Of a stretch of 64,000 bases of DNA, positions 1 through 49,936 are shown in pieces. The stretch is from Yuukianura sp. NJ FZ-2021 (taxonomy: Eukaryota). The stretch spans positions 1,364,001 to 1,428,000 of the forward strand of contig CM102289.1 of assembly GCA_046563655.1 (NCBI GenBank), given 5' to 3'. The notes below the pieces were generated by a model, which saw only the letters and a list, made by a program, of their open reading frames with translations, was not told the DNA's origin and did no database searches. Position 1 is the first letter of the stretch, and every line of letters starts with the position of its first letter. The position numbers and the translations under genes were made by a program.

Positions 1-2
1 CA

Positions 3-368
3 GCTTTATTTTTTGCAAGCTGTTTAATCCTGTTCCTAACCGAAGTCCTGTACCTATTCTCCCTACTGGTTGCTGAAATTACCCAGTCCTGTGTAGCATC
101 GACTTTTTCCGTCTTTGTTGATTTTTTGGCCCTACACGTTGCCCCTGTACTCTACCTAAGACGAAATCCTCGAGCTTACGCAGAACTACTTGGAGTCCTT
201 GTCGGAACTGAAACCTACTACTGTCTAGCTCTTTTGGTTAGACTCTTGTACTATCATTGGAGCTTCTTCAGTCCCATTTACCGCTGGTGTTTCAAATACT
301 ACGCAAGTACCCAAGGCTGGCTTGTCTTTGAATACGAGAATCCCCGTCTGCAAGAACGAAGATACTAA
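3..368 (+). CDS. Hydrophobic upstream ORF of the gypsy element (5'-partial, putative multi-pass membrane protein)
   Basis: Frame open from base 3 to TAA 366-368: ALFFASCLILFLTEVLYLFSLLVAEITQSCVASTFSVFVDFLALHVAPVLYLRRNPRAYAELLGVLVGTETYYCLALLVRLLYYHWSFF...QERRY, with 2-3 hydrophobic stretches. Start not visible. Confidence 0.5.
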   Translation, partial: ALFFASCLILFLTEVLYLFSLLVAEITQSCVASTFSVFVDFLALHVAPVLYLRRNPRAYAELLGVLVGTETYYCLALLVRLLYYHWSFFSPIYRWCFKYYASTQGWLVFEYENPRLQERRY

Positions 369-392
369 GGAGTTCCCAAATGTTGACATATT

Positions 393-1699
393 TTGCGAGA
401 CCCAGGTCTTCCTCCAGTACAAGGTCAACCGCAACAACAAGGCCCTTCCCCATCCCAGTCCACAATCCCCATGCAACCAGCACAACAAAACTACCATCCT
501 ACTTTTGCTATGCCCCCTCCAGTTCCTAACAATCCGCAGCAACCAGCTACTCCTGGTTCTGTGTACAGCGATGGTACACAAGCCAATATGGCTCCCAATG
601 CCCCCTTCCCTTGTACCCAGGACATTAAAATTTTCAAGCATATCCGGAAGTACGATGGAACGAGTGACCCTGCAGAATTCCTTGCACGCTACGAATACGA
701 TCTGAGAGGAACTGGATTCGGATCTTATGGAGCATTGAGCCACTTCGACAGAGTTTTGACTGGAGTCGCTAGCTCTTGGTTCATCTCAATTTGGCCCCAC
801 TTTCGAGAACAACTGGAAGATCCCACTAAAGATCCTGATGCTGTCTGGACTGAATTTGGAACTCAGTTCATTTCCCATTTTTCCCTTAAAGAGCGTAGAG
901 ATGATTTCAGAGCCCAGAATAAGTCCCTACGTTACAAATTGGGTGACTGTATTGACAAATACGTAGCGGACAAAATTGTTATTTTGTCTCGTTTGGATCC
1001 CAAGATGAGTGACAGCCGAAAGGTTGAATATCTCATTCGTGGACTCCCAGCAGACCTTGAAAAAGGTTTTGTAATGCTCAATATCCAAACCCCTCCGACT
1101 TTCAGAAAATTCTACGACGAGTTGCAGAAGTCCATACCCGTCCCAAAGATGGCTCTTCCCCTGTAGTCTCTATGCAGGCTTTTGAAATGGCAGCTGCCCC
1201 TAACCCCCCAATGCAGTTCCCCCAGTCGTCCCCACCCCAGATCCAACAACAGCCCAATGTTCCTGGTACCCCCCAAGCTGCTGGTCAAACGGCTTCACAA
1301 CCAACCAGTTTCGTGAATCGTCGGGATGCAGAAGGACGACCGATATGCAATCGCTGTAACCGAAGTGGGCACATTAGAAAACACTGTCACACCCCTACTT
1401 GGCGGCTCCCGGGTTACAATGGCCCTCAGCGTGCACTCCCAGCAGACCATTCCCCTCAGCCTGTATCCCCCCAGCAGCAAGGCTATTATAGCCAGGCTGT
1501 TCAACGTCCCTACCCAAATATTGACACTCGCCCATTGCAAACCAGTCCAAACCCTCCAGCACAGTCTCAAAATGTTCCTCGTCCGGATGCTGATTGGACC
1601 AAGACGATGATGACTGCCTTTGGAACAATGACGGATCTTCTCCAGAACATCGCTGCAGCAGTCCTTCCTAAACAAACACCGCCTCCGGAAAACCAGTAG
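393..1699 (+). CDS. gag: Gag (capsid plus CCHC zinc knuckle), split by a 1-nt frameshift at ~1090-1093
   Basis: Capsid-like YDGTSDPAEFLARYE...LTGVASSWF and knuckle CNRCNRSGHIRKHC. Adding one C to the run at 1090-1093 joins ORFs 393-1166 and 1172-1699 (QTPSDFQKILRRVAEVH). First in-frame ATG is 471. Confidence 0.88.
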
Positions 1700-4600
1700 A
1701 GCTGCCGTTGCAGGGACGACAGCCTCTACCCACCCCAACTTCTGTCCCTAAAAATTTGGTCCCAGTCCCTATAAGGGCTTGTCCCAAACGTTCCAAAACA
1801 CAAAAAACTAAACCCCCGACTTTCCAAACCCATAGAAAGTGCAAGGCTTTTGGCAGGAAGCCCCAATTTCAAAGTCCATTCCCACTAGAAGAGTTCTTTA
1901 CCAAATTGCAAACTCTTTTTGTCCAACAGCAGAAATGTTCCCAATGTTGTAACTCCAGCCCTACTTCAACTTTGATCGCTGGGAACCTTACAACCAAGTT
2001 ACCCATTCCTTGTTCTGACGCTCCAATAGTTCCTAATTCTGATCCTAATTTTGTTCCGAAAACTGATCCTAAACTTAATTTTGCTCCTAAGTCGGCTCCT
2101 AAAATTGATCCTAGTTCTAATCTTGCTCCTATTTATGTTCCAGATCCGAAAACTGACGCTACTGATCCGAAAATATTTGCTCAAAGTTCCGTTCCCGCTC
2201 CAAAAGCTGCTTCTGTTTGTGTTGGTACCTCTGCTCATTGGCCCTATGATCCGAAAACAGATCCCAAAGACGAAATTTGTCGTTTTGCTCCAGATCCTAA
2301 AGCTGTTTCGCTCACTTCAAAATTTGGAAATCCCCCCTCGATCCAAGGCAGAACTGCTGACTGGGTTAATAGTTCCCCAGAAATCCTAGCTGCAAATTCC
2401 AGTACCCCAGATTCAAACCTTGAACATGAGTCCCTATTCAATTCCCCAGTCCCCGAGTCCGAATTTCCTATGGGAATTTCAGTGGCTAAATTCATGTCCC
2501 AAATTCATTCTACCCAACATTCTACGTTCCACACGGATGTAGTCTTCGGTACCCAAACCCTCCGAGTCCTGTGTGACACAGGTGCTTCCCTTTGTTGTGT
2601 CCACCCCGAATTTCTACGAAAATTCCCCCATATTGTGTCGCAAGCGGTTGATGTGGAACCCGTTCGTGTGAAACTGTCCTTTGGTTCGTACGTCCGTTGT
2701 AATTCCCCCCAGACTACAATGATTTCTTTCTCCATTGACGGCGTCCCCTTCCAATACCCGTTCTACATTTTCCAGCACCTTTCCAACGAAATCGTTTTGG
2801 GTTCTGACTTTCTCCGTTCAGAACATTTTCTCTTGGATCCCGCTAACGAGCGCCTTGTAAAAGGTGAACTCCCCTGCACAGACCTCAGAAATGAGTACGT
2901 CTGTGTACCCAAATCCCAAATCCCTGTTCTAAACAAATTAACATTGTCTGAAACTGAACACGTTTCAGATACCCCCAGCTCCCCCATTGCGTCGGATCCA
3001 GAACCTGTGTCAAATCCCCCAGGTACGGCCAATCCCCCTAAACTAGTTCATGACATGACCCAGAATTCGTCTGATTCCCCTAAATCCCCTTCGTTACTTG
3101 ACTCTGAAGTTTCCTTCGTCAGTAACTCGAATTTGTCACAAAAATCTTCGCCCCCTCCGTGCCTACGTCTGGTCAGGTCCATCATCATCAACCCAAGAAC
3201 TATGAAACGCGTAAGCGTCAAGACAGATCTCCCTTTCACCGGGGATGTTCTTGTTTCCCCTCGTCAGGAGCTCCAGTATGCAAAACATATCGCCATTGGA
3301 AATTTTATTTCTACCCTCAAGGATGGCGCTGGAGTTACTTTCCTGTGGAATTTGGGAGACCGACCAGTAAAACTTCTGCAGAACATCTCCATAGGCACCT
3401 TCGAACCCTTCGCAGAGTCCTCAGTACTCTGTGACTTAGACGAATTTGGTCATGTGAGCTCCCAATTGTCCCAATCCCCTCTCCCAGCGCACCAAATCCT
3501 CGGACTTGCAGTTGATGATGATGATGACATTGCGTCTCTGAAATTGCAAAAGAGGATTGAGGCGTTTAAGATCTCCAAAACCCTAACCCCTGAACAGCGC
3601 CAAAAGATGCAGGATTTTCTTGTATCAAATTTGGATGTTTTTAATTTCGATCCAGCAACTCTTGGCCGTACTCATTTAACGACCCACAAAATTGACACAG
3701 GAACTGCGAAACCGATAGCATCCAATCCCCATAGAACAGGATTCACCGAGCGGAGAGAAATCCAAAACCAAGTCGAGCGTCTTTTGGATCTTAAGGCGAT
3801 AACCCCCAGCGATAGCCCTTGGTGTTCCCCAGTCCTTCTTGTCAAAAAGCCCGACGAAAGTTGGCGGTTTTGCGTTGACTTTCGTAAAGTCAACGCAGTG
3901 ACAAGAAAGGATTCCTACCCCCTCCCCCGAATCGACGACACCCTGGATCGTTTAAATGGTGCCAAGTACTTTACTTCAATGGATTGTGACCAGGCGTATT
4001 ACCAAGTCGAGGTGGAACCCGAGGACAGAGAGAAAACCAGCTTCGTAACCCCCGACGGACAGTACGAATTCGTCGTCATGCCCTTTGGATTAACCAATGC
4101 CCCAGCGACTTGGCAGCGTCTCATTGACAATGTCCTTGGTCGCTTAAAATGGTCCATAGCGCTCGTTTACTTAGACGATGTCGTTTGTTATTCCCGTTCT
4201 TTTGAAGAACACCTAGACCACTTAGCGCAGATTTTCTGTGCTCTCCGTAAAGCTGGTCTCAGTTTAAAACCCAAAAAGTGTTACTTTGCCGAAGATTCTT
4301 TGAAATTCCTTGGTCACATTGTCTCCCGTGAAGGAATTGCAGTTGATCCCCAGAAAACCCAAGCAGTTCGTGATTTCCCTACCCCCACGACTGTTAAAAA
4401 TGTCCGTTCCTTTGTTGGTCTTTGCAGTTACTACAGACGGTTTATTAAAGGTTTCGCGGAGATAGCTCGTCCCCTGCATCTTATAATAGCTACAAAACGT
4501 GGTACCCCATTTTTCTGGACCCCTGAAGCAGAGGTAGCGTTCCAAACCTTAAAAGACAAGTTGACTTCTCCCCCAGTCCTAGCGTTTCCCGACGAAGAAG

Positions 4601-6717
4601 CAGAGACGTCCGTCCATTGTGACGCGTCTGGACTTGGTTTCGGAGCTACGCTTTGTCAAATCCAGGATGGCGTAGAGAGAGTTGTAGCTTTTGCTTCGCG
4701 AGCTCTTTCCCCTTCCGAGTCGAAGTTTGGAACCCCCCAATTGGAAATGAAAGCGTTTGTTTGGGCTGTCGAGAAATTTCGTCCGTATTTATACGGGCGT
4801 CATTTTAAAGTTGTCACTGATCACCATTCCCTCTGTGACATGCTAAAATTCAAAGACCCTTATGGCCAAATTTCCCGTTGGTCCTTAGCCCTCCAGCCCT
4901 ACGACTTTACGGTTGTCCATAAAAGTGGCCGTATCCACACGGATGCGGACCCGCTGTCCCGAAACCCCGTTGACCCCGCTCCTTCTGACACAGACCATTT
5001 GGCCATTACACATCATCTTCTGGCCTTAGCGGTTTCCCCTGAAGCTCCCAGGAAAGTCCGTGAGTCAAAGTTGAAGGATCTCCAACTTAAAGAGCCAGAA
5101 TGGCTACCCATAATTGATTACTTAAAAGCAGAGCAGCTAGGTCAACCCCACTCCTTAGCGGAACCGAAAAAGTTGAGCGAATTTAGTCTGCGTGATGGAG
5201 TTTTGTACAAAATGAACTACTCTGAATTTGGTAACCTTTGGCGTCTTTGTCTTCCTAAGTCCCTCAGAAAATCTTGCATGGAGTCCGTCCACAATGATTC
5301 CCTTAGTCACCTTGGACTACACAAATCCTGGCATCTCCTTCGTTCCCGGTTTTACTGGCCCCGGATGTACCGTGACTTAGTCAAATTTGTCACCTCTTGC
5401 CACTTGTGTCAAGTACATAATAGACGGAACTTCGCTCTTCCCCCTAATAGCGTTGGCCTTGACGTTCCCGCCATTCCCTTCAACGCACTTGCTGTGGATT
5501 ACCTTGGCCCATTTCCCATCACAGCGAGGAGAAATACCTATATCCTAACCATAGTTGACCTCCATACCCGCTACGTTGAAGCTTGGCCCGTTCCCTCAGC
5601 AGATTCTGCTCAAGCGATCAAAGTCCTTACCAAACATGTCCTGTATCGTCATGGTATTCCCAAGATGATTCTCTCAGACCGTGGCACGGTTTTTCAGTCC
5701 GAAGAGTTTGAGGATTTCCTTTCCCTCCATTCCATTGACCACCGTTCTACGACTGCCTACAATCCCAAGTCAAACGGTGTCTGTGAACGACATAACGGCA
5801 CGGTAAAATCAGTCATCGCCAAATTCGTAAGTGAAAACCATAAAGATTGGGATATCCATCTTCCCAAAGCAGTTTTCTCCGTAAATTGTTCTGTACATCG
5901 GGTAACTAATTTCTCCCCATATTTTCTTGTCTTTGGACGGGAGCCGGTTTTGCCGGTAGATAAGGTATTTCCCCTTCCCCAAGATTATTTGACCCCTAAT
6001 GATTCTTTTGACAGATTATTCGTGGCAAACAACGTAGCCCATGAGTTGTCTCGTGAGCAACAGCTCTTACGAGTAAAAGCTCAAATGCAGATCCGATTCC
6101 CCACCTACGTTGCTGGTATGAAAGTTCTACTCCGGAACTTTCAGAGGAAAAAAGGTCACGTTGGAAAATTCACCAAGAAATGGATTGGCCCTTACAAGGT
6201 CATTGACGTCCTTGCCAATGGAACTGTTCGTGTTTCTTCGCTCCCACCTCGAAAACCTCACGAGACAGTCGTTAACGTACAACGATTAAAACCTTACCAC
6301 CAGCGTCTTTACGATGTTTCCGATTTTGACAGTAGTTCCCGTGAGTCGTCTGACGATGATTCTGAACCCCCTCAGTCGTTACAGGCTCCAGAAATTACCC
6401 CCGATCCAATCCCCCTTGAAATTCCGAACTTGCCCATAGAAATTCCCGAAATTGTCCCTTTTACGCTTCCCGAGATGATCCTAAATTTTGACCCCCAAAA
6501 TGTTGTCGAAAATGCTCCCCCTGAAAGCCCCGCCCCAGAAATCCCAGTTCCACCAGTTTTACCCGCACAGGATTCCCTGCTCCCTGTTGCGAGCGAAAAC
6601 CCCGTAATTTGCGCCCCTGCCAGCGTAAATCCCGCGATTTCTGCTCAACCCATGCGTGCGGCGCGTACGAAAGCTCTGTCACTGATTTCCCGCCTTACTA
6701 AACCTAAAAAGCGCTGA
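1672..6717 (+). CDS. pol: Pol polyprotein (protease, RT, RNase H, integrase)
   Basis: LCDTGAS protease (~2575); YLDD RT (4168-4179); CDASG RNase H; HHCC zinc finger and D-D-E integrase; WIGPYKV motif; no internal stops over about 1680 codons. Confidence 0.97.
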   Translation, partial: TNTASGKPVELPLQGRQPLPTPTSVPKNLVPVPIRACPKRSKTQKTKPPTFQTHRKCKAFGRKPQFQSPFPLEEFFTKLQTLFVQQQKCSQCCNSSPTSTLIAGNLTTKLPIPCSDAPIVPNSDPNFVPKTDPKLNFAPKSAPKIDPSSNLAPIYVPDPKTDATDPKIFAQSSVPAPKAASVCVGTSAHWPYDPKTDPKDEICRFAPDPKAVSLTSKFGNPPSIQGRTADWVNSSPEILAANSSTPDSNLEHESLFNSPVPESEFPMGISVAKFMSQIHSTQHSTFHTDVVFGTQTLRVLCDTGASLCCVHPEFLRKFPHIVSQAVDVEPVRVKLSFGSYVRCNSPQTTMISFSIDGVPFQYPFYIFQHLSNEIVLGSDFLRSEHFLLDPANERLVKGELPCTDLRNEYVCVPKSQIPVLNKLTLSETEHVSDTPSSPIASDPEPVSNPPGTANPPKLVHDMTQNSSDSPKSPSLLDSEVSFVSNSNLSQKSSPPPCLRLVRSIIINPRTMKRVSVKTDLPFTGDVLVSPRQELQYAKHIAIGNFISTLKDGAGVTFLWNLGDRPVKLLQNISIGTFEPFAESSVLCDLDEFGHVSSQLSQSPLPAHQILGLAVDDDDDIASLKLQKRIEAFKISKTLTPEQRQKMQDFLVSNLDVFNFDPATLGRTHLTTHKIDTGTAKPIASNPHRTGFTERREIQNQVERLLDLKAITPSDSPWCSPVLLVKKPDESWRFCVDFRKVNAVTRKDSYPLPRIDDTLDRLNGAKYFTSMDCDQAYYQVEVEPEDREKTSFVTPDGQYEFVVMPFGLTNAPATWQRLIDNVLGRLKWSIALVYLDDVVCYSRSFEEHLDHLAQIFCALRKAGLSLKPKKCYFAEDSLKFLGHIVSREGIAVDPQKTQAVRDFPTPTTVKNVRSFVGLCSYYRRFIKGFAEIARPLHLIIATKRGTPFFWTPEAEVAFQTLKDKLTSPPVLAFPDEEAETSVHCDASGLGFGATLCQIQDGVERVVAFASRALSPSESKFGTPQLEMKAFVWAVEKFRPYLYGRHFKVVTDHHSLCDMLKFKDPYGQISRWSLALQPYDFTVVHKSGRIHTDADPLSRNPVDPAPSDTDHLAITHHLLALAVSPEAPRKVRESKLKDLQLKEPEWLPIIDYLKAEQLGQPHSLAEPKKLSEFSLRDGVLYKMNYSEFGNLWRLCLPKSLRKSCMESVHNDSLSHLGLHKSWHLLRSRFYWPRMYRDLVKFVTSCHLCQVHNRRNFALPPNSVGLDVPAIPFNALAVDYLGPFPITARRNTYILTIVDLHTRYVEAWPVPSADSAQAIKVLTKHVLYRHGIPKMILSDRGTVFQSEEFEDFLSLHSIDHRSTTAYNPKSNGVCERHNGTVKSVIAKFVSENHKDWDIHLPKAVFSVNCSVHRVTNFSPYFLVFGREPVLPVDKVFPLPQDYLTPNDSFDRLFVANNVAHELSREQQLLRVKAQMQIRFPTYVAGMKVLLRNFQRKKGHVGKFTKKWIGPYKVIDVLANGTVRVSSLPPRKPHETVVNVQRLKPYHQRLYDVSDFDSSSRESSDDDSEPPQSLQAPEITPDPIPLEIPNLPIEIPEIVPFTLPEMILNFDPQNVVENAPPESPAPEIPVPPVLPAQDSLLPVASENPVICAPASVNPAISAQPMRAARTKALSLISRLTKPKKR
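1687..1749 (+). promoter_or_regulatory. Putative -1 ribosomal frameshift signal (gag to pol)
   Basis: G GAA AAC at 1687-1693, just before the gag TAG; the pol frame is -1 and open from 1672. Stem GCTGCCGT(1701-1708)/ACGACAGC(1716-1723) lies 7 nt downstream and extends to 1696-1729. Confidence 0.72.
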
Positions 6718-6766
6718 CTGAGTGTTTTATTTAATACTCATACTGTGTTTTTTTATGATTTTCAGG

Positions 6767-7978
6767 ATGGACCAACCACCGGAGGATCTGATGGAACAAG
6801 GAGAAGATGACGCTTCTGAGGGAATTGCGGAAATTGATTTGGCTGCAGAAGACGAACTCCTGAATTCTCCGCCTCCGCGTGATACTGCTTCTCCTGGCTC
6901 TTCATCGTCGTCTTCATCTTCGTCATCTTCGCCCCCTACGACTGTCATCGCTGCGCCCATTACTCCTCGTCGTGTGGATCCGATTCCGGATGATTGGGAC
7001 ATGCCACTCGCTGCTGATTCTCCTCCAAAATCCCCGAAGAAGCCGGATCGTCAGTCCCCCCAAAGCTCTGGCAGTTTCAACCCCCGTTCCCCTCAAAAGA
7101 GCCTCCAGGAGATGGTTTCGGCCCCAGCACCTCGTCCAAAGTTAGCTTCGGTCGTCGTCGTTGTCCCCAACTCGTCTCAGCAATCTGGAATGTTTCGTCG
7201 TCCCTCTGCTCCTGCGCCGAAATCCAATTCGCAAGTCCAGAAGTCTGCTGCAGCCAAGGTCGTCCCGCTTATGGATTTGAAGTTCCCCGATGGACCTCCA
7301 AAACCCCCCGTAGCTGGTCATTCCCGTTCCAGTTCCCCCTCCGTCTTGGCTCGTGACATGGCAAAAGTCACTCTGAACTCTCAAACCCCCCAAAACCCTG
7401 GACCGAGCACTTCATCACGATCGGCTGCACCTATTCGGATTCTCACTCGCCCAAATCGTCCCGCTCCGTACTCTACTCGTCCTCCATTGGCTCAAAATTC
7501 GGCTCCATCTTCATCAATTCGGCCACATTCTTCAAATTCCCGCCAAAATTCTGCCTCTGGTTCTTCTACTTCCTCAGCTCAACCAGTTCCCCAAGCTCAA
7601 GCAGCTCCCCAAGCCTCCTCATCAGTTCCCCAAGCCACTTCCGGTTCCTTCACCATCCCCATCTCAGCAGCAGCTTCCAGCTCCACGTTCCAGGCAACGA
7701 ATGTTCCCCCTGGACTGATCCCCATTCACGCCTACGTTCCAGCCAGCGCAACGTCAGTCACCGTCACGTGGAATACCCCCCAGGAACCTTCAAACGCTGC
7801 TCCAGTTCCCCCAGCTCCTGCACAAGGACGTTTTCCCCAAGCTCCTGCACAAGGACGTTTCCCCCCAGCCCCGAATCGGCAACAGCGACGTGCTAGATGG
7901 TGGGCAGAGAACTCGGCCAATTGTCCCCCACCACCAAAGAAGAATCATCCCAAGGATCCCCCTCCACCATCTCAGTAG
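6767..7978 (+). CDS. ORF3 of the gypsy element: 403-aa Ser/Pro-rich disordered protein (not env-like)
   Basis: ATG 6767 follows a T-rich tract ending TTTTCAG (6765). Acidic N-terminus, poly-Ser, duplicated APAQGRFP and a basic RQQRRARWW C-terminus; no signal peptide or TM segment. Confidence 0.75.
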   Translation: MDQPPEDLMEQGEDDASEGIAEIDLAAEDELLNSPPPRDTASPGSSSSSSSSSSSPPTTVIAAPITPRRVDPIPDDWDMPLAADSPPKSPKKPDRQSPQSSGSFNPRSPQKSLQEMVSAPAPRPKLASVVVVVPNSSQQSGMFRRPSAPAPKSNSQVQKSAAAKVVPLMDLKFPDGPPKPPVAGHSRSSSPSVLARDMAKVTLNSQTPQNPGPSTSSRSAAPIRILTRPNRPAPYSTRPPLAQNSAPSSSIRPHSSNSRQNSASGSSTSSAQPVPQAQAAPQASSSVPQATSGSFTIPISAAASSSTFQATNVPPGLIPIHAYVPASATSVTVTWNTPQEPSNAAPVPPAPAQGRFPQAPAQGRFPPAPNRQQRRARWWAENSANCPPPPKKNHPKDPPPPSQ

Positions 7979-8043
7979 CTTCCCCGAATCGCTCCAGAGT
8001 CCCTCGGTTTATCGCCGTGGCGGCTCACAGATCGCTGGGAATC

Positions 8044-8648
8044 TGTAGGGAGGTATCCCCACAACCCCCTCTCAAAGCCTATACGGCTCCCTCGTCCTCC
8101 TCCGCTCCACTCCACAGCAGCAACACAACAACAATCCCCTTCGTCCCCCTGCAGTTCCGGAGACGCCAGACCACCAGCTCCAATTCAGCAGCCAATCACA
8201 ATCGCCGAGGATTGCATCAGCCACTTCCCTGCAGCTCCTTCTGGCAGTTTCATCTCCTCCATCTTCTCGTCCTCCTCCACACAGTCGTCCACACCATCTC
8301 ACAAGGAGAAGATCTCGTCACTCCAGTTCCCAGTAGCAGCCATCTTCCTTCTTCGTGTCTGGACACGCTACTGCCTCTATTGACCCGGATTTGACCTCAA
8401 TTCACCTCCACTGGACTTCCTGGACAGACCAGGAATACCTGGTTGATCCGACCAGGACCGCTCGTCTCTCCTACTACTACAAATTGGCCGTAACTGTATC
8501 TTTTGTTTGTTCAATAAATTACTAATCCAATTCTTGTAGCTCCCGTGACCTCTGCCCCTTTATTTCCGTCGTCAGACGTTCTCGGGTGACCGCGAGTCGG
8601 CCCGTCGGGGAGTTCACTCCGAGCTTTCCCTCAACCGAGGTATATTCA
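8044..8648 (+). repeat. Putative 3' LTR of the gypsy element
   Basis: Begins TGTAGGGA (8044); TCCCTCA ending at 8633 is an imperfect inverted match (alternative CA end at 8648); AATAAA at 8513. The 5' LTR is not in the window and the polypurine tract is weak. Confidence 0.4.
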
Positions 8649-10450
8649 CTTACTTCAAATTCGAATGTCGGTGTACCATCATACAAGCTGGAATGAACAT
8701 TCGAAATAACACGGAATTTGAAATTTTTAAACTCATGTACTCGCAGGATTTTAAAAGTTTTGTTGAAATTTCACTTTTGAAGAATGTACCAGCCATACAT
8801 GGAGTATATTTGAACCAAATCAGAACCTATTTTGTCAACAACACTAAAAACTTTAAGTTGTACACAATCACTGAGATTGGTATAGGGCGTCACTGTGTCA
8901 AAACAGCGCCATCTCCATTCTTACTTCTAAATCCCACTGAAATCAAATTTGCCGACTACCACATGGCTTACTTGCTAATAAATTTTTTGTCTCACGGTAA
9001 ATACCATGCTGCTTATGTCGTGCCAAACTTGTACCAAATGTCGTTTCAATCTTGGTTCCATGGAAATTTATCATGTACAGCAAATATCTTTAACGCTATT
9101 GAAGCCGATGCACAGGGACTTCTGATAGAATCCAACTCTATCATATACAAAGACATAGGAGCAGACCTATACAATATGTATCTACTCGACTGGATTGTAT
9201 TTGACCCTGAATACCGTCTAATTCTGGAGCGTGTACCAAAAACAGTTCCTATGACACTCCATATGCTACCGAGCACGCAAGCGTTAGAGTACAATTTTTT
9301 CACGTGCGATGGACGGTACGACGGAGAATACACGTATGAAATGTACATCAAAGCGTTTGAAGTTAATGCTTGGGCGGTAATTCTCATTGCACTGGCAGTA
9401 CTCATCTGTTTTATTTGGATACTTATAGTCAAAATTTTGAAGAAAAAGGATAGTGCTTGGTTTATAGTATTTGCATCTATCCTGGAAATTTATCCAGGCG
9501 TTTCAAAAAAACTGGAGTCTAGTATTGGTTTCTCCTTGGTGGCAATTCCTTTAGTTTTTCTAGGACTTTTGCTAGCCAATTGCTACAAGGGTTCTATAAC
9601 TGCCGGTCTTGTTCATAGGCCACCTTGGAAGGGACTTGAAACCTTTGAAGATGTGATACGGCACAACTATTCTGTGTTAGCTAAATCCGCCATGCCAGGG
9701 TTCATGTTTTATAGTAAAGAATGTAACTTGAAAAATGGATTTGTTAAAAATTACAACGCAACTCTGGCGATTAGCTTTGAGTTTGCCAATCGCGTCAAAG
9801 GTTTAGCGACTAAATTTCGTTCGCTCCCTGAGAGCCAACAAATTCAGCGAAAAGCGATTTTGACAGAACTCATACCGCGTATCCGTTTACCAAATAATGT
9901 GGTGTATAACTGCTCAGTTGACGTCGTCACAAAAAGGGGGTCGGATGGCACGATAATTGCAGATTTAGTACATCCAAACAACTTTATCCTTAGTGATCTC
10001 GCGAAATGTAACAAAACGGTGTACGTAACAGACGAAACTTTTATAACACACTTAAAGCAGTCAACATCTAAAGATGAAACTGTGAAGGTCATGTACTCTG
10101 GAAATCGGAAACGAGAAGAAATGGAACTTTTTCGGTTCGGTACAAGGCAGTACATTGTAAGTCTTCAAGAGGAAGACTATGACAATTTGTACATCAAGAC
10201 AAATGTAGATGCGCTATCTAGCGGAGGATTTTTGCATTACTGGGAAAATTTGAAAATTTATCATGCCAAAATTTCTTTTGAGGCAGAAGAAGAAGCTTTT
10301 CAAAAAGACGTGGCTCAACCAGTTCCCTTGGGTCTAACTAAAAAATGTTCAACAATTTTTGTAATCCTAGCAGTAGGCATAACCTTCTCAATTGTTGGCA
10401 TGCTTAAGGAATTCATTAGTAGTATTTGTAAATGTGAAAACTTTTGTTAA
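8649..10450 (+). pseudogene. Divergent ionotropic receptor (IR) copy 1, 5' part cut off by the retrotransposon
   Basis: Collinear with 11141-13456 from YFKFECRC onward; lacks about 170 N-terminal codons, which are replaced by the element; otherwise open to the stop. Confidence 0.85.
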
Positions 10451-11140
10451 CCGGCGTTGCCGTCTAAAGTTTGATCTTGATAAACGAAGTTATGTGGAGT
10501 AAAGGAGTTGCAATTTTTGTGAAAGTTGAGGAAAGAATTTTTTTTTGATTTTACTGCAAAAGTTTCATGAATACAATTAAGCAAGTGTAAAAATCCCTGC
10601 TAGCTTCTCTTGCTTTTAAACAAAAAAAAGCAATGAAAGCAGCATCTTAACTTTAAAGAATCTTGGAATACTAATTTTAGAGTAATTTGTTCCTCAACTA
10701 TGTTGGTTTTCCGCTTAACATTTGCGAGTAGATAGACCTTCACTTTTCTACCTATCCATAGAAACCAATAAACATTACTAAGGGAAAACACCAATTTTAA
10801 CAATTTCAGTATGGAAAGAAATTTAAACTTTTGTTACGTATCGGTCTAATACGACACGCGAAATATCCTAAAACTGAAAATAGTTGAAATAAAACTTTTG
10901 GTAAATTGTCTTTGTTCAGGCACATGCAATGAGCGGCAACTTAAAAAAAATATTCGCGCGTGTGGACATAAATACTTGTTGTAATAAAAATATGCTAATC
11001 ATTGGGTAGAAAAGTAGCGAAGGATACATAATAAAAAAGGAAAACTTTTTTTTCTTACTTTTTGTCTTTGAAAGTTTTTGCGTTGAGCAGATAGTTCAGG
11101 TGAAGATTAAAATTTTTAATTTTTGCTTTAAGACCTCAAT

Positions 11141-13456
11141 ATGGAGATTTCGAAAATTTTGAGCTATACCATCTCTCTGCTTTCTTTTTATGTTACGCAA
11201 CTACTTGGAAAGAATTCTCATCAGGTTCAGTTAGAAACTTTAACATTTTTTAAATCCTGTTGGACAGAATTTGTCAGAATGGACATCGCCAGAAGTGATT
11301 CCATCGGAATTTGCCAAGTGAACAGCTCATTTGGATTTCCGATTGTTCTAAGATCCAAAATCGGCCGAAGAATTACAAGTTTAGAGCTGAAGCAAACTTT
11401 TCAGCTAAAGTTCAAATGCCTCGCTATTATATTTTGTGGGCTTGACAACCGCAAACACGTCAAAAACATAACAGAAATGTTGAAGGGAATTCAAATTGCA
11501 AAACGTCATGTGCATCTTTCAACTGGAGATTTCTTAGATCCCTCTCGCAGCAAAGGAAATACATTATCACTCATGTGGTACAACCGACTCTTCAAATCTC
11601 AAAATACTTTCATAGTTGGACTCATGGAACAAAATGTTTCATACTCTAAATTATTCCTTTACTTCAAATTCGAATGTCGTTGTACCATCATACAAGCTGG
11701 AATCAACATTCGGAATAACCCAGAATTTGAAATTTTTAAACTCATGTACTCGCGAGATTTTAAAAGTTTTGTTGAAATTTCACTTTTGAAGAATGCACTA
11801 GCCATACATGGCGTATATTTGAACCAAATCAGAACCTATTTTGTCAACAACACTAAAAACTTTAAGTTGTACACAATCACTGAAATTGGTATAGGACGTC
11901 ACTGTGTCAAAACAGCGCCATCTCCATTCATACTTCTAAATCCCACTGAAATCAAATTTGCCGACTACCACATGGCTTACTTGCTAATAAATTTTTTGTC
12001 TCACGGTAAATACCATGCTGCTTATGTTGTGCCCAACGTATACCAAATGTCGTTTCAATCCTGGTACCATGGAAACTTATCATGTACCTCACGTATCTTT
12101 AGCAGTCACTTAGCTTATGAACAAGGACTTTTGATAGAATCCAACTCTATCATTTATAAAGACATAGGAGCAGATCTATACAATCTTTATCTACTCGTAC
12201 ATAGGGTACACAAGGCTGAAGACCGTCCATTTCTAGAACGTGTACCAAAAACAATTCCAATGACACTCCACATGCTACCGAGTACGCAATCTTATGATTA
12301 CAATTTTTTTACATGCGATGGACGATATGATGCAGAATTTCCGTATGAAATGTACATCAAAGCGTTTGAATTTAAAGCATGGGCGCTCATTCTCTTCGCA
12401 CTGACTATATTGATTTGTTTTATGTGGATATTTGTTAAAATTTTGAAAACAGAGGATAGTGCTTGGCTGATAGTATTTGCATCAATGCTGGAAATTTATC
12501 CAGGCGTATCAAAAAAAGTGAATTCTAACATTGTATATTGCTTGGTAGCAATTCCGTTAGTTTTTCTGGGACTTTTGCTATCCAATTGCTACAAAGCATC
12601 TATAACTAGTGGATTGGTGTTGAAACCACCGTGGAAGGGACTTGAAACATTTGAAGATGTGATTCAGCACAACTATTCTGTGTTAGCCAGAACAACCATG
12701 GCAGGGTTCATGTTTTATAGTAAAGAATGTAACTTGAGAAATGGGTTTAATCGCAACTACAACGCATCTCTGAAGAATAGCTTTGACTTTAGCAATCGCA
12801 TCAGACATATGACAAGTAAATTCCGTACGCTCTCGGAGTTCCAACTAATTCAACGCGAATCAATCATAAATGAGCTCATACCGCGTATCCGCTTGCCTGA
12901 AAATGTTGTGTATAACTGTTCAGTTAAAGATGCGATAAAGAGGAGGGCGGATGGCACGATAGTTGCAGATTTAGTACACCCAAACAACTTTATTCTCAGT
13001 GATCTCGCAAACTGTAACAAAACGGTGTATGTTACTGATGAAACTTTTATAACACACTTAAAACAGTCAGCATCTCAAGATGAAACTACGAAGGTCATGT
13101 ACTCTGGAAATCGAAAACGAGAAGAAATGGAACTTTTTCGGTTCGGTACAAGGCAGTACATTGTAAGTCTTCAAGAGGAAGACTATGACAATTTATACAT
13201 CAAGTCTAATGTTGATGCGCTATCTAGCGGAGGATTTCTACATTACTGGGAAAATTTGAAAATTTATCATGCCAAAATTTTTTTTGAGGCGGAAGAAGAA
13301 GCTTTTCAAAAAGACGTGGCTCGACCAGTTCCTTTGGGTCTAACTAAAAAATGTTCAACAATTTTTGTGATCCTGGCAGTAGGTATAACGTTCTCAATTG
13401 TTGGCTTTTTTAAGGAATTCATTAGTAGTATTTGTAATCGTGAAAAATTTGGGTAG
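11141..13456 (+). CDS. Divergent ionotropic receptor (IR), intronless, 771 aa
   Basis: Signal peptide; NFFTC...YIKAF..W M1; ASMLE pore segment; LLLSNCYKASITSGL M3; ETFEDV; C-terminal TM. This is iGluR/IR topology. Confidence 0.82.
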   Translation: MEISKILSYTISLLSFYVTQLLGKNSHQVQLETLTFFKSCWTEFVRMDIARSDSIGICQVNSSFGFPIVLRSKIGRRITSLELKQTFQLKFKCLAIIFCGLDNRKHVKNITEMLKGIQIAKRHVHLSTGDFLDPSRSKGNTLSLMWYNRLFKSQNTFIVGLMEQNVSYSKLFLYFKFECRCTIIQAGINIRNNPEFEIFKLMYSRDFKSFVEISLLKNALAIHGVYLNQIRTYFVNNTKNFKLYTITEIGIGRHCVKTAPSPFILLNPTEIKFADYHMAYLLINFLSHGKYHAAYVVPNVYQMSFQSWYHGNLSCTSRIFSSHLAYEQGLLIESNSIIYKDIGADLYNLYLLVHRVHKAEDRPFLERVPKTIPMTLHMLPSTQSYDYNFFTCDGRYDAEFPYEMYIKAFEFKAWALILFALTILICFMWIFVKILKTEDSAWLIVFASMLEIYPGVSKKVNSNIVYCLVAIPLVFLGLLLSNCYKASITSGLVLKPPWKGLETFEDVIQHNYSVLARTTMAGFMFYSKECNLRNGFNRNYNASLKNSFDFSNRIRHMTSKFRTLSEFQLIQRESIINELIPRIRLPENVVYNCSVKDAIKRRADGTIVADLVHPNNFILSDLANCNKTVYVTDETFITHLKQSASQDETTKVMYSGNRKREEMELFRFGTRQYIVSLQEEDYDNLYIKSNVDALSSGGFLHYWENLKIYHAKIFFEAEEEAFQKDVARPVPLGLTKKCSTIFVILAVGITFSIVGFFKEFISSICNREKFG

Positions 13457-13857
13457 TTGGCGAATGCATAAGCAATCCGTATTGATAAAAAGACGTTGTG
13501 TCATGCTATTGCCTAACATTTAGCAGCAAGTTGAGTTGGAACTTAAACACTCCCTAAACTGGTCCATTAGTCCTTAAATACATCAGCTTCCAAATTCGAA
13601 GCTTACTGTTCATATTGAACCACATTTTTAAAATACTTACACTATAAAAAAAGTTCGGTTTAGATAAAAATTGATACCTCAAAGTAACAAATAATTTAAC
13701 TGAGTATTTAGAAATGTTCATAACAAACCCTCAACTTATGTAAGAATAAGAAATTTCAGAAAATTTCGGTCAGAAAAACGATAACTTTGATGTCAATACC
13801 TCAAAAATGCAAAAACCGGCGACTTCCATGACAACGTGAAAAACAATCGAATTGATA

Positions 13858-14010
13858 TTTCTAAATCCCGATGAAGTCAAATTTGCCGACTACCATATCG
13901 CTTACTTGCTAATGAATTGTTTATCTCATGGGAAATACGATGTTGTGTATGTTGTGCCCAACGTGTTCCAAGTGTCGTTTCAATCCTGGTTGCATGGAAA
14001 CTTATCATGC
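13858..14010 (+). pseudogene. IR gene fragment
   Basis: FLNPDEVKFADYHIAYLLMNCLSHGKYDVVYVVPNVFQVSFQSWLHGNLSC matches an internal segment of the flanking IRs; similarity is lost on both sides. Confidence 0.85.
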
Positions 14011-14419
14011 AATGTGAAAGTCATCCGTCATAGGGATAAGTTCGAACGGATACGACGTGAGGAAGACACGAGTATTAGGGGATTTATAGCGACTATTCTA
14101 TTTATAATTGAACTGGAATTTGAATTTACATAGCCTTTGCCTATGTACTCCAAAATGAAAAAGAATCGCTCGTATTTGCTTTTGGTCTCATTTCGATGAC
14201 AGTAGTAGGTGGGAATATAATTTTTCTTCACAACATCGCGTGCCTATGAAGTCATGCATGTTCAACTTTTTATGCATAGGAATTTAGTTAAGTTCAGTTC
14301 TATGAATGCTGTCAGAACGGCATTAGTCAGCCTGTTTCAGCTAAAGTTCAACTACTTTTGACATTTAGCAGCCACTTAAGAATAAAATCTCAAAAATTGT
14401 CAGTCTCGAAACCGTCGTA

Positions 14420-16939
14420 ATGAAAATTTGGAAAGTAATTGAACCTGTTGTTTATACAATTTCACTGATCGCCTATTATGCTCCGGAAATACTTGCTTTG
14501 TATGCTCATCAGGTTCAGTTGCAAACTTTAACATTTTTTAAGAACTGTTGGACAGAATTTGTGAGACTGGACATAGCCAGAAGTGATTCCATTGGAATTT
14601 GCCAGGTGAACAGCTCACTTGGATTTGCGATCGTCATAAGATCCGAAATCGGCCGAAGAATTACAAGTTTAGAGCTGAAACAAACTTTTCAGCTAAAGTT
14701 CAAATGCCTCGCTATTATATTTTGTGGGCTTGACAACCGCAAACACGTCAAAAACATAACAGAAATGTTGAAGGGAATTCAAATTGCAAAACGTCATGTG
14801 CATCTTTCAACTGGAGATTTCTTAGATCCCTCTCGCAGCAAAGGAAATACATTATCACTCATGTGGTACAACCGACTCTTCAAATCTCAAAATACTTTCA
14901 TAGTTGGACTCATGGAACAAAATGTTTCATATTCTAAATTATTCCTTTACTTCAAATTTGAATGTCGCTGTACCATCATACAAGCTGGAATCAACATTCG
15001 GAATAACTCGGAATTTGAAATTTTTAAACTCATGTATTCGCGAGACTTCAAAAGTTTTGTTGAAATTTCACTTCTGAAGAATGTACAAGCCATACATGGA
15101 GTATATTTGAGGAAAATCAGAACCTATTTTGTCAACAACACTAAAAACTTTAAGTTGTACACAATCACTGAGATTGGTATAGGGCGTCACTGTGTTAAAA
15201 CAGCGCCGTCTCCATTCATACTTCTAAATCCCGCTGAAATCAAATTTGCCGACTACCACATGGCTTACTTGCTAATAAATTTTTTGTCACACGGTAAATA
15301 CGATGCTGCTTACGTAGTGCCAAACGTATACCAAATGTCGTTTCAATCCCGGTACCATGGAAACTTATCATGTACTTCACGTATCTTTAGCAGTCACTTA
15401 GCTGATGAACAAGGACTTTTGATAGAATCCAACTCTATCATATACAAAGATATAGATGCAGAGCTGTACAATATATATCTACTCGTACATAAAGTATTTA
15501 GGTCTGAAAGCCGTCCGTTTCTAGAACGTATACCAAAAACAGTTCCCATGACACTCTATATGCTACCGAGTACACAAACTTTAGAGTACAACTTCTTCAC
15601 TTGCGATGGCCGATACGATGGAGAAAATCCGTATGAAATGTATATCAAAGCGTTTGACTTTACTGGGTGGGCGGCCATTCTTAGCGCAGTTGCAATACTG
15701 ATCGGTTTTATGTGGGTACTGATTGTCAAAATTTTGAAAGAAGAGGATAGTGCGTGGTTTATAGTATTTGCATCAATGTTGGAAATTTATCCAAGCGTAT
15801 CAGAAAAGGTAGAATCCAGTAGTCGCTTCTCTATTGTAGCAATTCCGTTACTATTTCTGGGACTATTAGTAGCCAATTGCTACAAAGCGTCAATAACGTC
15901 TGGACTAGTTTTGAGGCTACCTTGGAAGGGACTTGAAACATTTGAAGACGTAATTGCCCAGAACTATTCTGTGTTAGCCAAAACAACCGTGGCAGGGTTC
16001 GTGTTTTATAGCAAAGAATGTAACTTAAGAAATGGGTTTAATCGAAACTACAACGCATCTCTCAAAAATAGTTTTGACCTTAGCAATCGCATCAGACACA
16101 TGACAAGTAAATTCCGTACGCTCTCTGAGTTCCAACTAATTCAGCGTGAAGCAATCATAAACGAGCTATTACCGCGTATCCGTTTACCTAAAAATGTTGT
16201 TTATAACTGTTCAGTTAAAGATGCGACAACAAGGAGAGCGGATGGCACAATAGTTGCAGATTTAGTACATCCAAACAACTTTATTCTCAGTGATCTGGCA
16301 AAATGTAACAAAACGGTGTACGTAACTGATGAAACTTTTATAACATACTTAAAACAGTTAACATCTAAAGGTGAAACTACGAAGGTCATGTATTCTGGAA
16401 ATCGAAAACGAGAGGAGATGGAACTTTTTCGGTTCGGTACAAGGCAGTACATTGTAAGTCTTCAAGAGGAAGACTATGACAATTTGTACATCAAATCCAA
16501 TGTAGATGCGCTTTCTTTCGGAGGATTTCTGCACTACTGGGAAACCTTGAAAATTTATTATGCCAAAGTTTCTTTTGAAGCTGAAGAAAAAGCTTTTCAA
16601 AGAGAGGCGGCAAACCCTGTTCCGTTGGCTCTAACTAAAAAATGTCAGACGATTTTTTTGCTTTTGTTAGTTGGCATTGCCGTCTCAAGTTTGGTCATGA
16701 TCAAAGAGGTTATGCAAGCTAAAAAGTTACAACTTTCAAAAATGTTGAAGGAGTCGTACTTCAGTTTGATGAAAAAAATTACTAAAACATCAACTTTGAA
16801 AGTGAGGAAAGGTCCAAAGTTGATGTCGAAATCACAAAAATACAAAAGGGCGTGGTTTCCATTGCAACGTGAAAACCAGCAACAGACTAACCTTGACAAA
16901 AATTTTATGAAGAGTAAGCGTGACGTTCAAATATCTTAG
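14420..16939 (+). CDS. Divergent ionotropic receptor (IR), intronless, 839 aa
   Basis: Paralog of 11141-13456 with the same motifs plus a Lys-rich C-terminal extension of about 65-70 aa. Confidence 0.82.
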   Translation: MKIWKVIEPVVYTISLIAYYAPEILALYAHQVQLQTLTFFKNCWTEFVRLDIARSDSIGICQVNSSLGFAIVIRSEIGRRITSLELKQTFQLKFKCLAIIFCGLDNRKHVKNITEMLKGIQIAKRHVHLSTGDFLDPSRSKGNTLSLMWYNRLFKSQNTFIVGLMEQNVSYSKLFLYFKFECRCTIIQAGINIRNNSEFEIFKLMYSRDFKSFVEISLLKNVQAIHGVYLRKIRTYFVNNTKNFKLYTITEIGIGRHCVKTAPSPFILLNPAEIKFADYHMAYLLINFLSHGKYDAAYVVPNVYQMSFQSRYHGNLSCTSRIFSSHLADEQGLLIESNSIIYKDIDAELYNIYLLVHKVFRSESRPFLERIPKTVPMTLYMLPSTQTLEYNFFTCDGRYDGENPYEMYIKAFDFTGWAAILSAVAILIGFMWVLIVKILKEEDSAWFIVFASMLEIYPSVSEKVESSSRFSIVAIPLLFLGLLVANCYKASITSGLVLRLPWKGLETFEDVIAQNYSVLAKTTVAGFVFYSKECNLRNGFNRNYNASLKNSFDLSNRIRHMTSKFRTLSEFQLIQREAIINELLPRIRLPKNVVYNCSVKDATTRRADGTIVADLVHPNNFILSDLAKCNKTVYVTDETFITYLKQLTSKGETTKVMYSGNRKREEMELFRFGTRQYIVSLQEEDYDNLYIKSNVDALSFGGFLHYWETLKIYYAKVSFEAEEKAFQREAANPVPLALTKKCQTIFLLLLVGIAVSSLVMIKEVMQAKKLQLSKMLKESYFSLMKKITKTSTLKVRKGPKLMSKSQKYKRAWFPLQRENQQQTNLDKNFMKSKRDVQIS

Positions 16940-17371
16940 CGTGATGAATTTCAAAAGCACTAGGTTCGGTATTGCCTAACTGGAAGTAGCAGCTCTAAAA
17001 TTTATTAATCAAATGCAAAGTGCGCTTTTCTGTTTTTTAAACTTTTAATACACGACTACACATACTAATGCAATTTCCATGTTAAATAACTAGGACCAGT
17101 CATTTCAATTTAAAGTTTACCTAAATTGCGATAAATGGGGAAAAGTTTTAAAAAGTTGGCACAACTTTAATGTAAATATGGGCGGTTACACCTTAAAAGG
17201 ACCATATTTCTAGCTCAAGGTACCGACTGCACAGAATTTTGAACGACGGGACATGAAAGTCATTTAGTCTCATTCAACTCACAGCCTATATAACGTAACC
17301 TAACTTTACCTTACACTCTAATGTAACTTTTTGTATGTAGTTTAGTAGTTGCATTTACTACCTTGAGCGTC

Positions 17372-18776
17372 ATGTTATCAAAGACTACTTGGAAGTATAC
17401 ACTAAAACTGTTTCAAGATGGATACAACTGGAGAGCTTATAATTTCAAAATCCTGCGCCGCCGGAATAAGTTCGAACTCGTACGATGTGACCATGACAGG
17501 AGTGTTACTGTGAGGTTACTTGCGGCCATTAGCCTATTTATAAATTGCACGTTGATTGGACTTTACACAGCCATTGCCTATGTACTTCGCAATGACAAAG
17601 AATTGCTCGTATTCGCTTTTGGTCTCATCGCCATAACTCTAGTATTCTGCGAAGTCCAGCTGTATCATCTTCAGTTCATGGATGATATCATTACCATTGC
17701 ATCGGCTTACCTAAAGCTCGAAGCACATCTCCGTAAGTTAAAACCAAACAATTTTAAAACACATATAGTTAGGTATGTCCAATTTCTGTTTGTAGCGCAT
17801 TTCACAAGTGTATATGTTTGCCTAATATATTTCAAAATTTGTCTGGGTATTACAGACAAAATTAATCATATGAAGCTATTCTCTACTGAGTCAGATGGAT
17901 ACGAAGCTGTGACAAAGTTTTGTGCGTTGGCGGTTAACTACACTCGGATTGCAGTTATGCCTTTGTGTATTACGTTCTTTGTCTTTGTGGACAGCAAGAT
18001 CAGTCAAGCCTGTTACTTGATAATTGGAAACATTTTGAAAACATGCTTTGGTATTGACCATATTCTGCTAGTTGGTTTGACAATTCTAGTCATAACAACT
18101 CTTGGAACCCTGGCTGTCAACAACGGCGTGTTTGCCATACTACTTGCCACCCAATTTGCTTTACTTTACTCAAATTCTACGCGGTTGTGGCTTGAAAAAA
18201 TGCAGTAAGTTTTGTAATTACTTCTTGAAAAAATGTATAGTGACTTCAAAATATATTCCGCTTTAACATTGGCATAATGATAAAAGATTTATTTGTGTTT
18301 CGAGCAGCGAAGCACTAGAAGATGAGACGATGCAAGCAAATCAATGCCATATGTACGCCTGCTTACAAGTCATCAACAAATTTGCAACCTACATTTTTGC
18401 TGACGGAGCACAGTGCATTTTGTGCACTTCAATTGTGACTCTAATAATTTTTCTTTATACATTTCTAAAACTATTTGAACCGGAATACTTTTTCTTACTT
18501 CCAATATTTTTCATTACCGCAATAGGCATAATTTGTGTTACAAACGAGGGAATTACTTTGGGTGTTCTATGTCATGACAACTCCATCAAAGTTGTCCAAC
18601 TTGGAAAATTCAAATTGCCCAACAACAATCTCTACTATAGTAAATTTTGGAGGTCAAGACAGCCAATCAATCTCAGAGTTGGAAGGCTTTTTGTTGTTGA
18701 CTCCAAACAGTATTTACTCACCATCTATGGAGATATCATACTCCAAACTGTCGTTGACCTAATCCTTACTTTTTAA
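17372..18776 (+). CDS. 7TM chemoreceptor (insect GR/OR superfamily-like), 3 exons
   Basis: Exons 17372-17732, 17856-18204, 18308-18776 with GT-AG introns at the same positions as in the paralog; multiple TM segments; C-terminus FWRSRQPINLRVGRLFVVD...IILQTVVDLILTF. Confidence 0.75.
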
Positions 18777-19622
18777 ACAAAGTTGATCAAAATATGAAAA
18801 AGTGCTTTAAGTTTGCAACCTCAATATGATATTGTATGTATATAGTATGGATGGATGTGTATACTACGTAGCATACAGTGTGTATGTAAGTTATAACATA
18901 ATTTAAATTAAGAAATATAACACTTGTTGTGCAATTCAAAGTTATTGGAAATGGAACCAGAATATTATTTCCAGCGTGTATATTCCAGGTAAAAAGATGA
19001 AAAAGCACTCCCAAGAGATAGAATTTTGGATTTTGCTTATACGATTAGGTTGAAACATGGTTGTCTAACGTCTAACTAATGTCATCTTGTCATCTTCATT
19101 TTGCAATTTCCAAAACATGTCCTCCCAAAAATATTTAAAAATTGTTACCCGTGCAACATGACGTAGATTCAAGCTTCCGTGACATCCAAATTGAATTTTC
19201 TACAACAGGCTGTTCAATAATTTTTTGCTCCAATTTTACGCCAATTTTGTGTTGTTTATTTTTATCAAATCTAGATGTACTCAACCTCATCTATGTTTAC
19301 ATTATATTTACAGATATGTTTGCAAATGCGCGAATGCAGGCAGGTAGTCGTGAAGTTTATCTTGATGAGTTGAAATGTAAAATTTCATAGCATGTCTTAG
19401 AAGTTATGTTCTGTGTATGCCTAGATAATTCAGGTACAAAGATCGTTACGCCTAAAAAATGTCTAATGTTTTTATCAGTGTTGCATAAATGCAGAATTTC
19501 TTGGAGTGAAAAAAAAAGTTAATTTAGTTAGCGTCTAACTGTCGCGTAAGTTAGCGTAACCTTACAGTAAGAGTTAGCTAATATTTTGTTGAAACCCGGA
19601 AGCCAGAAACTGAACTTGCGTC

Positions 19623-43964: not shown

Positions 43965-44200
43965 AAGAATCTGTGCTAACTTTTGGAAACTGGACGTCAT
44001 TTACACTTTCTCTAACTCATTGGCTTCTTTTTACAACAACAAAAATTGTAGTTTTTTCTTAATTTAAATTCTTAAAGTCAACTTCAAAATTGGAAATTAA
44101 AACTTATCATCAGAGCATAACATTTTCCAATCTCGTATACAAACAAATTATTTATTCTATACTAGGTTGTGCAATACCTCGAAGTTTTAGATTTTGTTTA

Positions 44201-49888: not shown

Positions 49889-49936
49889 TGTTTTACACTT
49901 ACAAACTCACACAATTAAAACTGTTATTCTTATTTT

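Follow-up and report, generated by a model that had tools for sequence, protein, structure and literature searches.

An env-less Ty3/gypsy element with two accessory genes, one of them a tentative RNA-export adaptor, in Yuukianura sp.

How long terminal repeat (LTR) retrotransposons export RNA that still contains introns, and what role is played by the many unexplained third open reading frames (ORF3s) they carry, is the question raised by an element at the start of a 64,000-nucleotide stretch of the genome of Yuukianura sp. NJ FZ-2021 (GenBank assembly GCA_046563655.1, contig CM102289.1, positions 1,364,001 to 1,428,000, forward strand; hereafter the window). In many LTR elements the env position is taken by ORFs that lack an explanation, and CERV of the Caenorhabditis elegans element Cer1 is needed for the export of unspliced RNA (PMC10309623; this and the other cited papers are used for the parts of their texts available to us). 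CERV is the one tested case found in our literature search. The window opens inside a Ty3/gypsy element that is left at about position 8648, for which a first reading of the letters (the sequence-only reading) had proposed a four-ORF layout with a membrane protein ahead of gag and a spliced soluble protein after pol, the pair replacing env. Our preferred and still tentative reading is that the gene after pol, ORF3, encodes a Rev/CERV-like RNA-export adaptor and not an env substitute, within an env-less ‘complex’ Ty3/gypsy element that has two independent accessory genes.

Results

ORF3 lies behind a conserved acceptor in the env position

Directly downstream of pol, a T-rich spacer runs into an acceptor-like site next to the start codon of ORF3 (Table 1), and by a simple pyrimidine score of our own this AG ranks first among the 455 AGs of the element. 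Twelve related loci, L001–L012, all from metagenomes, serve here as relatives, and in a tree of these loci and the window element L001 is the sister of the latter (99/99). Six of the 12 extend past the pol stop, the others ending earlier or, in the case of L012, being decayed, and all six carry an AG 0–6 nucleotides (nt) 5′ of the ATG, which ranks first in five of them and second in one. Donor-like sites matching a loose pattern are present in the leaders of 7/7 relatives. Judging from this arrangement, we consider it very probable that ORF3 is spliced; the sequence-only reading had called it so, and the conserved acceptor and ATG after pol are consistent with it as far as splicing can be read from an acceptor. 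A donor-like AG/GTAT at 8638–8646 (+) sits just within the LTR end, and its equivalent in the 5′ LTR is, speculatively, a candidate ORF3 donor. In a stem at 6703–6752 (+; z −3.0) the likely branch point is base-paired, together with some of the pyrimidine tract of the ORF3 acceptor, and this could limit splicing; as a splice switch the hairpin was rejected, being absent in six relatives (z −0.7 to +1.8).

The frame behind this acceptor carries marks of coding. Codon-position bias in its successive quarters (p 5e-9, 0.06, 5e-6 and 1e-3) compares with 0.39 and 0.05 in the LTR, and among the substitutions listed from a comparison with contigs (32 of 2647 pieces, 40 of 1872 substitutions and 12 indels were listed in all), five of seven in ORF3 are silent when taken singly, against 26% expected. 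Frames as long as ORF3 and the upstream membrane ORF each arose in one of 1000 dinucleotide shuffles and in 3–6% of order-2/3 Markov nulls, the tested regions having been picked after the frames had been seen. ORF3 has no membrane segment (maximum KD19 1.05), and its structure model is disordered (mean pLDDT 48) apart from a single helix at residues 371–383 (pLDDT about 80). In line with the sequence-only reading, both accessory frames have the appearance of genuine genes of the element, ORF3 through the acceptor–ATG–ORF3 slot conserved in relatives and the membrane ORF through a homolog described below; that both are real genes we regard as probable. Two further ORFs, at 7897–8394 and 7979–8383, were rejected as genes, lying mostly in the LTR with little codon bias and with six of the 12 listed indels.

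Table 1 Features of the element and of the adjoining host gene, in window coordinates
Feature	Position	Strand	Remarks
Membrane-type ORF before gag	3..368	+	121 amino acids (aa) visible; 5′ end outside window
gag first frame, P/Q-rich start and Ty3-type capsid domain	387..1166	+	In-frame ATGs at 471, 510 and 588
gag second frame, with the CCHC zinc knuckle and the gag stop	1061..1699	+	gag broken between two frames in present copy
Likely −1 gag-pol frameshift signal, GGAAAAC then hairpin	1687..1729	+	Putative function
pol: protease, RT, RNase H, integrase	1672..6717	+	One open frame, 1681 codons
T-rich spacer ending in acceptor-like TTTTCAG	6718..6765	+	48 nt, 53% T; one base before ATG
ORF3, S/P/A-rich, disordered	6767..7978	+	403 aa from ATG 6767; open frame 6722–7978
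Acidic export-signal-like motif A-x3-I-x2-I-x-L	6812..6841	+	ORF3 residues 16–25, aligned with relatives’ stronger motif
Arg-rich helix, candidate RNA-binding or nuclear-localisation motif	7877..7915	+	ORF3 residues 371–383; putative role
Probable 3′ LTR with AATAAA at 8513	8044..8648	+	Start and end predicted; 5′ LTR outside window
3′ part of interrupted host ionotropic-receptor-like gene	8649..10450	+	Lig_chan match, weak

A motif resembling a CRM1 export signal recurs among the ORF3s

The ORF3s of the relatives are 149–213 aa long in the five out of five with full sequence there, and share an order of parts: an acidic start, a low-complexity linker (rich in S/T/P in four of them and acidic in L005), a CCHC knuckle that matches the Pfam zf-CCHC family weakly in 4/5, and a Cys-rich basic tail. 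At the N-terminal end of four of them (L003, L004, L007 and L011) stands a strict hydrophobic-x3-hydrophobic-x2-hydrophobic-x-hydrophobic pattern with acidic spacers, each at 4–6% by shuffle, and L005 has only looser matches, as expected by chance. The first 40 residues of the window ORF3 have a net charge of −13 and include the motif given in Table 1; its alignment with the L011 ORF3 runs over the motif (pairwise E 1e-4), and Ala as its first residue is permitted by a relaxed export-signal consensus. True CRM1 export signals are marked by the hydrophobic spacing described above, by acidic residues in the spacers and by flanks that are disordered (PMC3442415).

Taken together, these features suggest the following course of expression. 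Full-length RNA would give Gag and, by a −1 frameshift, Gag-Pol, in keeping with the layout of the frames. Splicing would connect the acceptor at 6765, whose position is conserved, with a donor in the part of the leader beyond the window edge, and ORF3 would be made from its own ATG. Because gag and pol both lie in the ORF3 intron, the unspliced genome would depend on assistance to exit the nucleus, and ORF3 would be the most likely helper: its acidic N-terminal signal would bind the exportin CRM1, a long disordered linker would follow, and a C-terminal module, consisting of the zinc knuckle and Cys-rich tail in the relatives and of the Arg-rich helix in the window ORF3, would bind the element RNA. 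Such a pairing of export signal and RNA-binding module, encoded by a message from which gag-pol is spliced out, follows the logic of Rev and CERV. The motif order of Rev differs from that of the window ORF3.

Several observations weigh against this reading. The window motif begins with Ala and scores 4.0 bits, a value equalled by 67 of 2000 shuffles against the relatives’ profile; the comparison of the window ORF3 with that of L007 is not significant (E 17); and the L003 motif has a proline in its spacer, where proline is inhibitory. The motif-bearing relatives come from one metagenome, and the motif was noticed before being tested. The precision of the export-signal consensus is 4–12% (PMC3442415). 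The Pfam scan shows no zinc knuckle in the window ORF3, and a protein search returned no homolog (0/7999). CERV, for its part, is structured and unrelated: ORF3 protein searches, among which there was no direct pairwise comparison with CERV, gave no CERV match, and the disordered model stands against three folded CERV domains. Among the seven listed ORF3 substitutions two share one codon, drawn as they are from the 40 of 1872 that were listed. Finally, five of five listed ORF3 pieces from diverged copies (about 85% identity) are out of frame (+2, −10, +5, −10 and −23, worked out by hand; four of the five are from one sample), in contrast to 20/20 gap-free pol pieces among those listed. Diverged copies may have decayed in ORF3 or may end it earlier. 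The sequence-only reading had named freely broken accessory frames in sister copies as evidence against itself; the diverged pieces go that way for ORF3, and 0/12 listed indels fall within either accessory ORF.

The five relatives with a full ORF3 are all from one metagenome and are not independent; L001, from another metagenome, ends at its ORF3 ATG and does not reach as far as the leader. Hairpins compared among relatives gave no conserved RNA target structure.

A membrane ORF upstream of gag

The frame before gag is open at the window edge, with no ATG inside the window. It shares the C-over-G skew of the element, does not repeat the 3′ LTR, and is joined to the start of gag by contigs from two studies (pieces 235–454 and 31–461), and on these three grounds we assign it to the element. 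The skew spans about 1–9000 and disappears in host DNA, in agreement with the earlier remark that both accessory ORFs share a C-rich composition. A full scan of 1.84 billion proteins yielded a single homolog, P0001 (112 aa, E 4.6e-4), which is 39% identical across 82 residues and aligns at 36.7 bits, where the highest of 3000 shuffles scored 8.0; from this homolog about 20 further residues are expected upstream of the visible frame. Crude hydrophobicity scales indicate one confident membrane helix at the N-terminal end and two marginal ones, with basic residues about 30 aa past the first helix, and the structure model has two long helices (pLDDT 69). The earlier call of a membrane ORF is thus matched by the hydrophobic frame and its homolog, with one confident helix only and no ATG in the window.

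Other searches with this frame were negative: a fold search with its model (0/19 at E <0.001), a comparison with longer proteins (0/536 candidates), a query joining it to gag with X at the two stops (0/2715) and a scan of viral contigs with its alignment. An Atlas search gave no usable match for the membrane ORF or ORF3. No membrane ORF was seen in the leaders of the relatives with leader sequence (0/7). Because ORF3-carrying relatives lack it there, we treat the two accessory genes as separate and not as one module. Env replacement by a membrane and soluble pair, as first suggested, is not supported, given these leaders and an ORF3 without a membrane segment. The upstream ORF would instead be a later, lineage-restricted small membrane protein. 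Our guess that it ties particles to a membrane is prompted by the Gag of the relatives, which starts almost at the capsid domain.

Length distinguishes the frame, and N-terminal features its homolog, from sORF2/FAST-type proteins. At 121 aa or more, if the stop at 366 is general, it exceeds their 63–107 aa, and P0001 starts MVCPRV, with no myristoylation motif and about 8 residues before the helix in place of about 30. On length the membrane ORF does not qualify as an sORF2/FAST protein; for myristoylation and ectodomain the comparison is with P0001, the N-terminal end of the frame itself lying outside the window. The single helix with a polybasic patch behind it that is typical of sORF2/FAST proteins compares, in the window frame, with one confident and two marginal segments and with the distant basic residues mentioned above.

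gag, pol and the limits of the element

Protease, RT, RNase H and integrase follow each other in pol in the order that marks Ty3/gypsy (Metaviridae), and the intact pol of the sequence-only reading is confirmed. The best PDB match is Ty3 Gag-Pol (E 3e-118), a Pfam scan of pol gave no chromodomain match, and 13 of the 19 substitutions listed for pol are silent. A Ty3-type capsid and a CCHC knuckle are likewise present, in a gag that is split in the present copy and whose Pfam matches lie below cut-off (PF03732 E 7e-4 and PF19259 E 9e-4 for the first frame); by tblastn that frame matched seven relatives at E 1e-23 or better. Contigs of 4/4 runs carry an indel relative to the window within gag, and for this reason the break looks particular to the window copy or its assembly. 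Of the four-ORF layout first proposed, the open pol, the hydrophobic frame before gag and the disordered frame after pol are in place, and gag is the part that departs from it. The ORF list and the Pfam scan of the window contain no env-like ORF in the element, which upholds the earlier statement that env is absent, and no F- or gB-type envelope gene of the errantivirus kind follows pol, ORF3 being disordered in its model, without a Pfam match and low in hydrophobicity.

At the gag-pol junction, GGAAAAC and the hairpin after it suggest a −1 frameshift: CGGAAAAC stands immediately 5′ of the gag stop in 4/7 relatives, with variants in the other three, and the hairpin has a z of −2.2 (6/200 shuffles equal or better). 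A conserved AGGYGCSGGGTA motif in 6/7 leaders (L002, L004, L005, L007, L008 and L009), directly after the 5′ LTR in L007, is possibly an unusual primer site. Within pol, the region 3160–3440 (+) between protease and RT is also present in the relatives and has no Pfam match; we take it, by resemblance, to be dUTPase-like. Strong hairpins in pol coding sequence at 2801–2920 (z −4.6) and 3801–3920 (z −5.3), each with 0/200 shuffles as strong, are the best two of 86 windows. The latter was rejected as an RRE-like element, not being kept in nine relatives (z −2.3 to +0.9), and a hydrophobic frame at 2030–2389 was rejected as a gene, since it arises where tandem repeats of pol are read out of frame.

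The TG that begins the probable 3′ LTR sits 66 nt past the ORF3 stop, compared with 48–133 nt in four relatives. Similarity to host paralogs resumes at 8643–8649, which fits an element end at 8642–8648; an end at 8633 was dropped, since the next nine bases mismatch the host paralogs, and a contig matching from 8643, taken at first for an empty site, was rejected as identical to paralog sequence. In run X4 the summed contig depth over 8061–8680 climbs as high as 5000, the level elsewhere being about 10; this peak may be a high-copy repeat or related LTRs matching part of this one. An Rfam scan gave zero matches, a PHROGs search 0/3, searches of prokaryote genomes and of viral contigs with the RT query gave nothing, and none of nine window translations matched in an exact look-up in a protein collection.

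Weighing the alternatives

The readings considered here overlap in part and concern different ORFs, and among them the Rev/CERV-like adaptor ranks first. Next comes a possible but doubtful role of ORF3 as a spliced transcription activator or silencing antagonist, its acidic-hydrophobic N-terminal end being an activation or host-docking motif. An acidic and disordered composition also suits acidic activation domains, and the net charge of the N-terminal end and the disorder of the remainder of ORF3 fit this. Matches to the export consensus are mostly false (PMC3442415), and sORF1 of MDG1-group elements is a nuclear accessory protein whose role is unexplained (10.1101/2025.03.14.642691). The exact export-signal spacing in 4/5 relatives nevertheless argues for export, as does their C-terminal zinc knuckle, which suggests RNA binding. 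The reading we rank last, and think quite improbable, makes only the acidic first part of ORF3 a gene, short or decaying, and sees in the long C-rich frame a 3′ region that is for the most part free of constraint. The out-of-frame diverged pieces cover 7298–7837, stops are scarce in C-rich DNA (3–4% in the Markov nulls) and the relatives’ ORF3s are half as long; against it, the codon-position bias persists through residues 201–403 (third and fourth quarters above), the 12 listed indels include no well-supported one in ORF3, and only one in 1000 dinucleotide shuffles gave so long a frame.

The two other alternatives turn on the membrane ORF, and we hold both to be unlikely. One makes it an env-independent, sORF2/FAST-like protein for cell-to-cell transfer, with ORF3 assisting. 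Its place upstream of gag on the same strand, the missing env and its membership in a real small membrane protein family agree with this, as does the report that sORF2 and env never occur together in drosophilid elements (PMC13486581); its length (>121 aa), the features of P0001 described above, the empty fold search and the relatives that keep ORF3 without a membrane ORF speak against it. The other counts three ORFs in place of four, with the hydrophobic frame an N-terminal Gag extension and the two intervening stops particular to the copy or assembly. The membrane ORF and gag are in one frame, interrupted only by stops at 366 and 384; P/Q-rich gag-like coding begins 5′ of the first ATG; three junction-spanning pieces from three runs each exceed the window by three letters; and gag is broken once more further on. 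Scattered indels behind the three letters could mean a Gag extension. The simplest account of them, a single additional triplet within the CAA run near 430–441, leaves a stop, and one spanning piece has only one mismatch, so a stop would remain. Indels are few in the rest of the element, the Gag of seven relatives has no such extension, and, more weakly, no fusion appeared among the 536 longer-protein candidates. The Rev/CERV-like reading of ORF3 keeps its tentative first place.

A broader version of it strikes us as improbable: a widespread, undescribed invertebrate gypsy lineage with an independently invented Rev-like gene in the env slot, combining a constant CRM1 signal with a swappable RNA-binding module, and, in the branch of the window element, the gain ahead of gag of a new membrane protein of non-FAST type by which particles would pass from cell to cell without env.

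Host neighbourhood in the window

Three tandem, single-frame ionotropic-receptor-like genes at 8649–16939 (+) are 80–95% alike in blocks, and the element cuts the first of them. Pieces of a multi-pass membrane ORF at 17327–21560 (+), one of which was scanned with no Pfam match, are presumably gustatory-receptor exons, to judge by resemblance. Inverted repeats of 289 nt, 96% alike and 986 nt apart, at 21564–23127 probably mark a small DNA transposon. A BEL/Pao element at 44200–50195 (−) has one open frame of 1731 codons and identical 246-nt LTRs, and on account of that identity it is a very young insertion.

Discussion

A short motif common to otherwise unalignable ORF3s, within an acceptor–ATG–export-motif arrangement found across the lineage, is a useful new lead on the unexplained genes in this position. 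If the proposal is true, arthropod-type gypsy elements evolved Rev-like export a further time, and the membrane ORF would be a candidate for env-independent membrane targeting of a kind that a myristoylation-based sORF2 screen would miss; should both ideas fail, the element merely adds to the gypsy families that carry orphan cargo. Our literature search, which did not extend to most subscription papers, Repbase/Dfam or supplementary element tables, found no paper on the combination of both ORFs or on the export-like motif. The architecture had been put forward as possibly undescribed; in the literature searched this applies to the combination, whereas Cer1 CERV and the rotifer ORF3s already provide examples of spliced genes other than env in the env slot.

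In env-carrying Ty3/gypsy errantiviruses, gag, pol and a third gene follow in the same order (PMC13524379), but the third gene of the window element is not a glycoprotein, has no membrane anchor and gives no F- or gB-type match. The MDG1 group of Drosophila elements is likewise env-less, with soluble and membrane accessory genes, of which the membrane ORF precedes gag in the same orientation; it differs in that unspliced RNA carries both sORFs ahead of gag, and its sORF2-like proteins are of 63–107 aa, single-pass and mostly myristoylated (10.1101/2025.03.14.642691). The window element, in contrast, has its soluble gene after pol behind an acceptor, and its membrane ORF is longer and without sORF2 marks where testable. 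The bdelloid rotifer elements Juno, Vesta and TelKA have a non-env ORF3 in the env slot that is family-specific and typically spliced; these ORF3s include nucleases, esterases, coiled-coil proteins and small membrane proteins, and the consulted part of that account describes neither an ORF3 that is disordered and of export-signal type nor a membrane ORF ahead of gag (PMC5408684).

Cer1 CERV, of 517 aa, is encoded in five exons, shares exons with Gag and has three folded domains, and the gag and pol of Cer1 are not separated by a stop (PMC10309623). The window ORF3, with its own ATG and its disorder, is CERV-like in position only. Its likeness to HIV-1 Rev and HTLV Rex (PMC10309623) is that of an accessory protein, proposed to come from spliced RNA, in which a CRM1 signal would be coupled to an RNA-binding module; we claim no sequence relation. 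The architecture is real, and unusual but precedented: in the sources as consulted, each accessory type has its precedent, in MDG1 sORF1 and sORF2, in Cer1 CERV and in the spliced ORF3s of rotifers.

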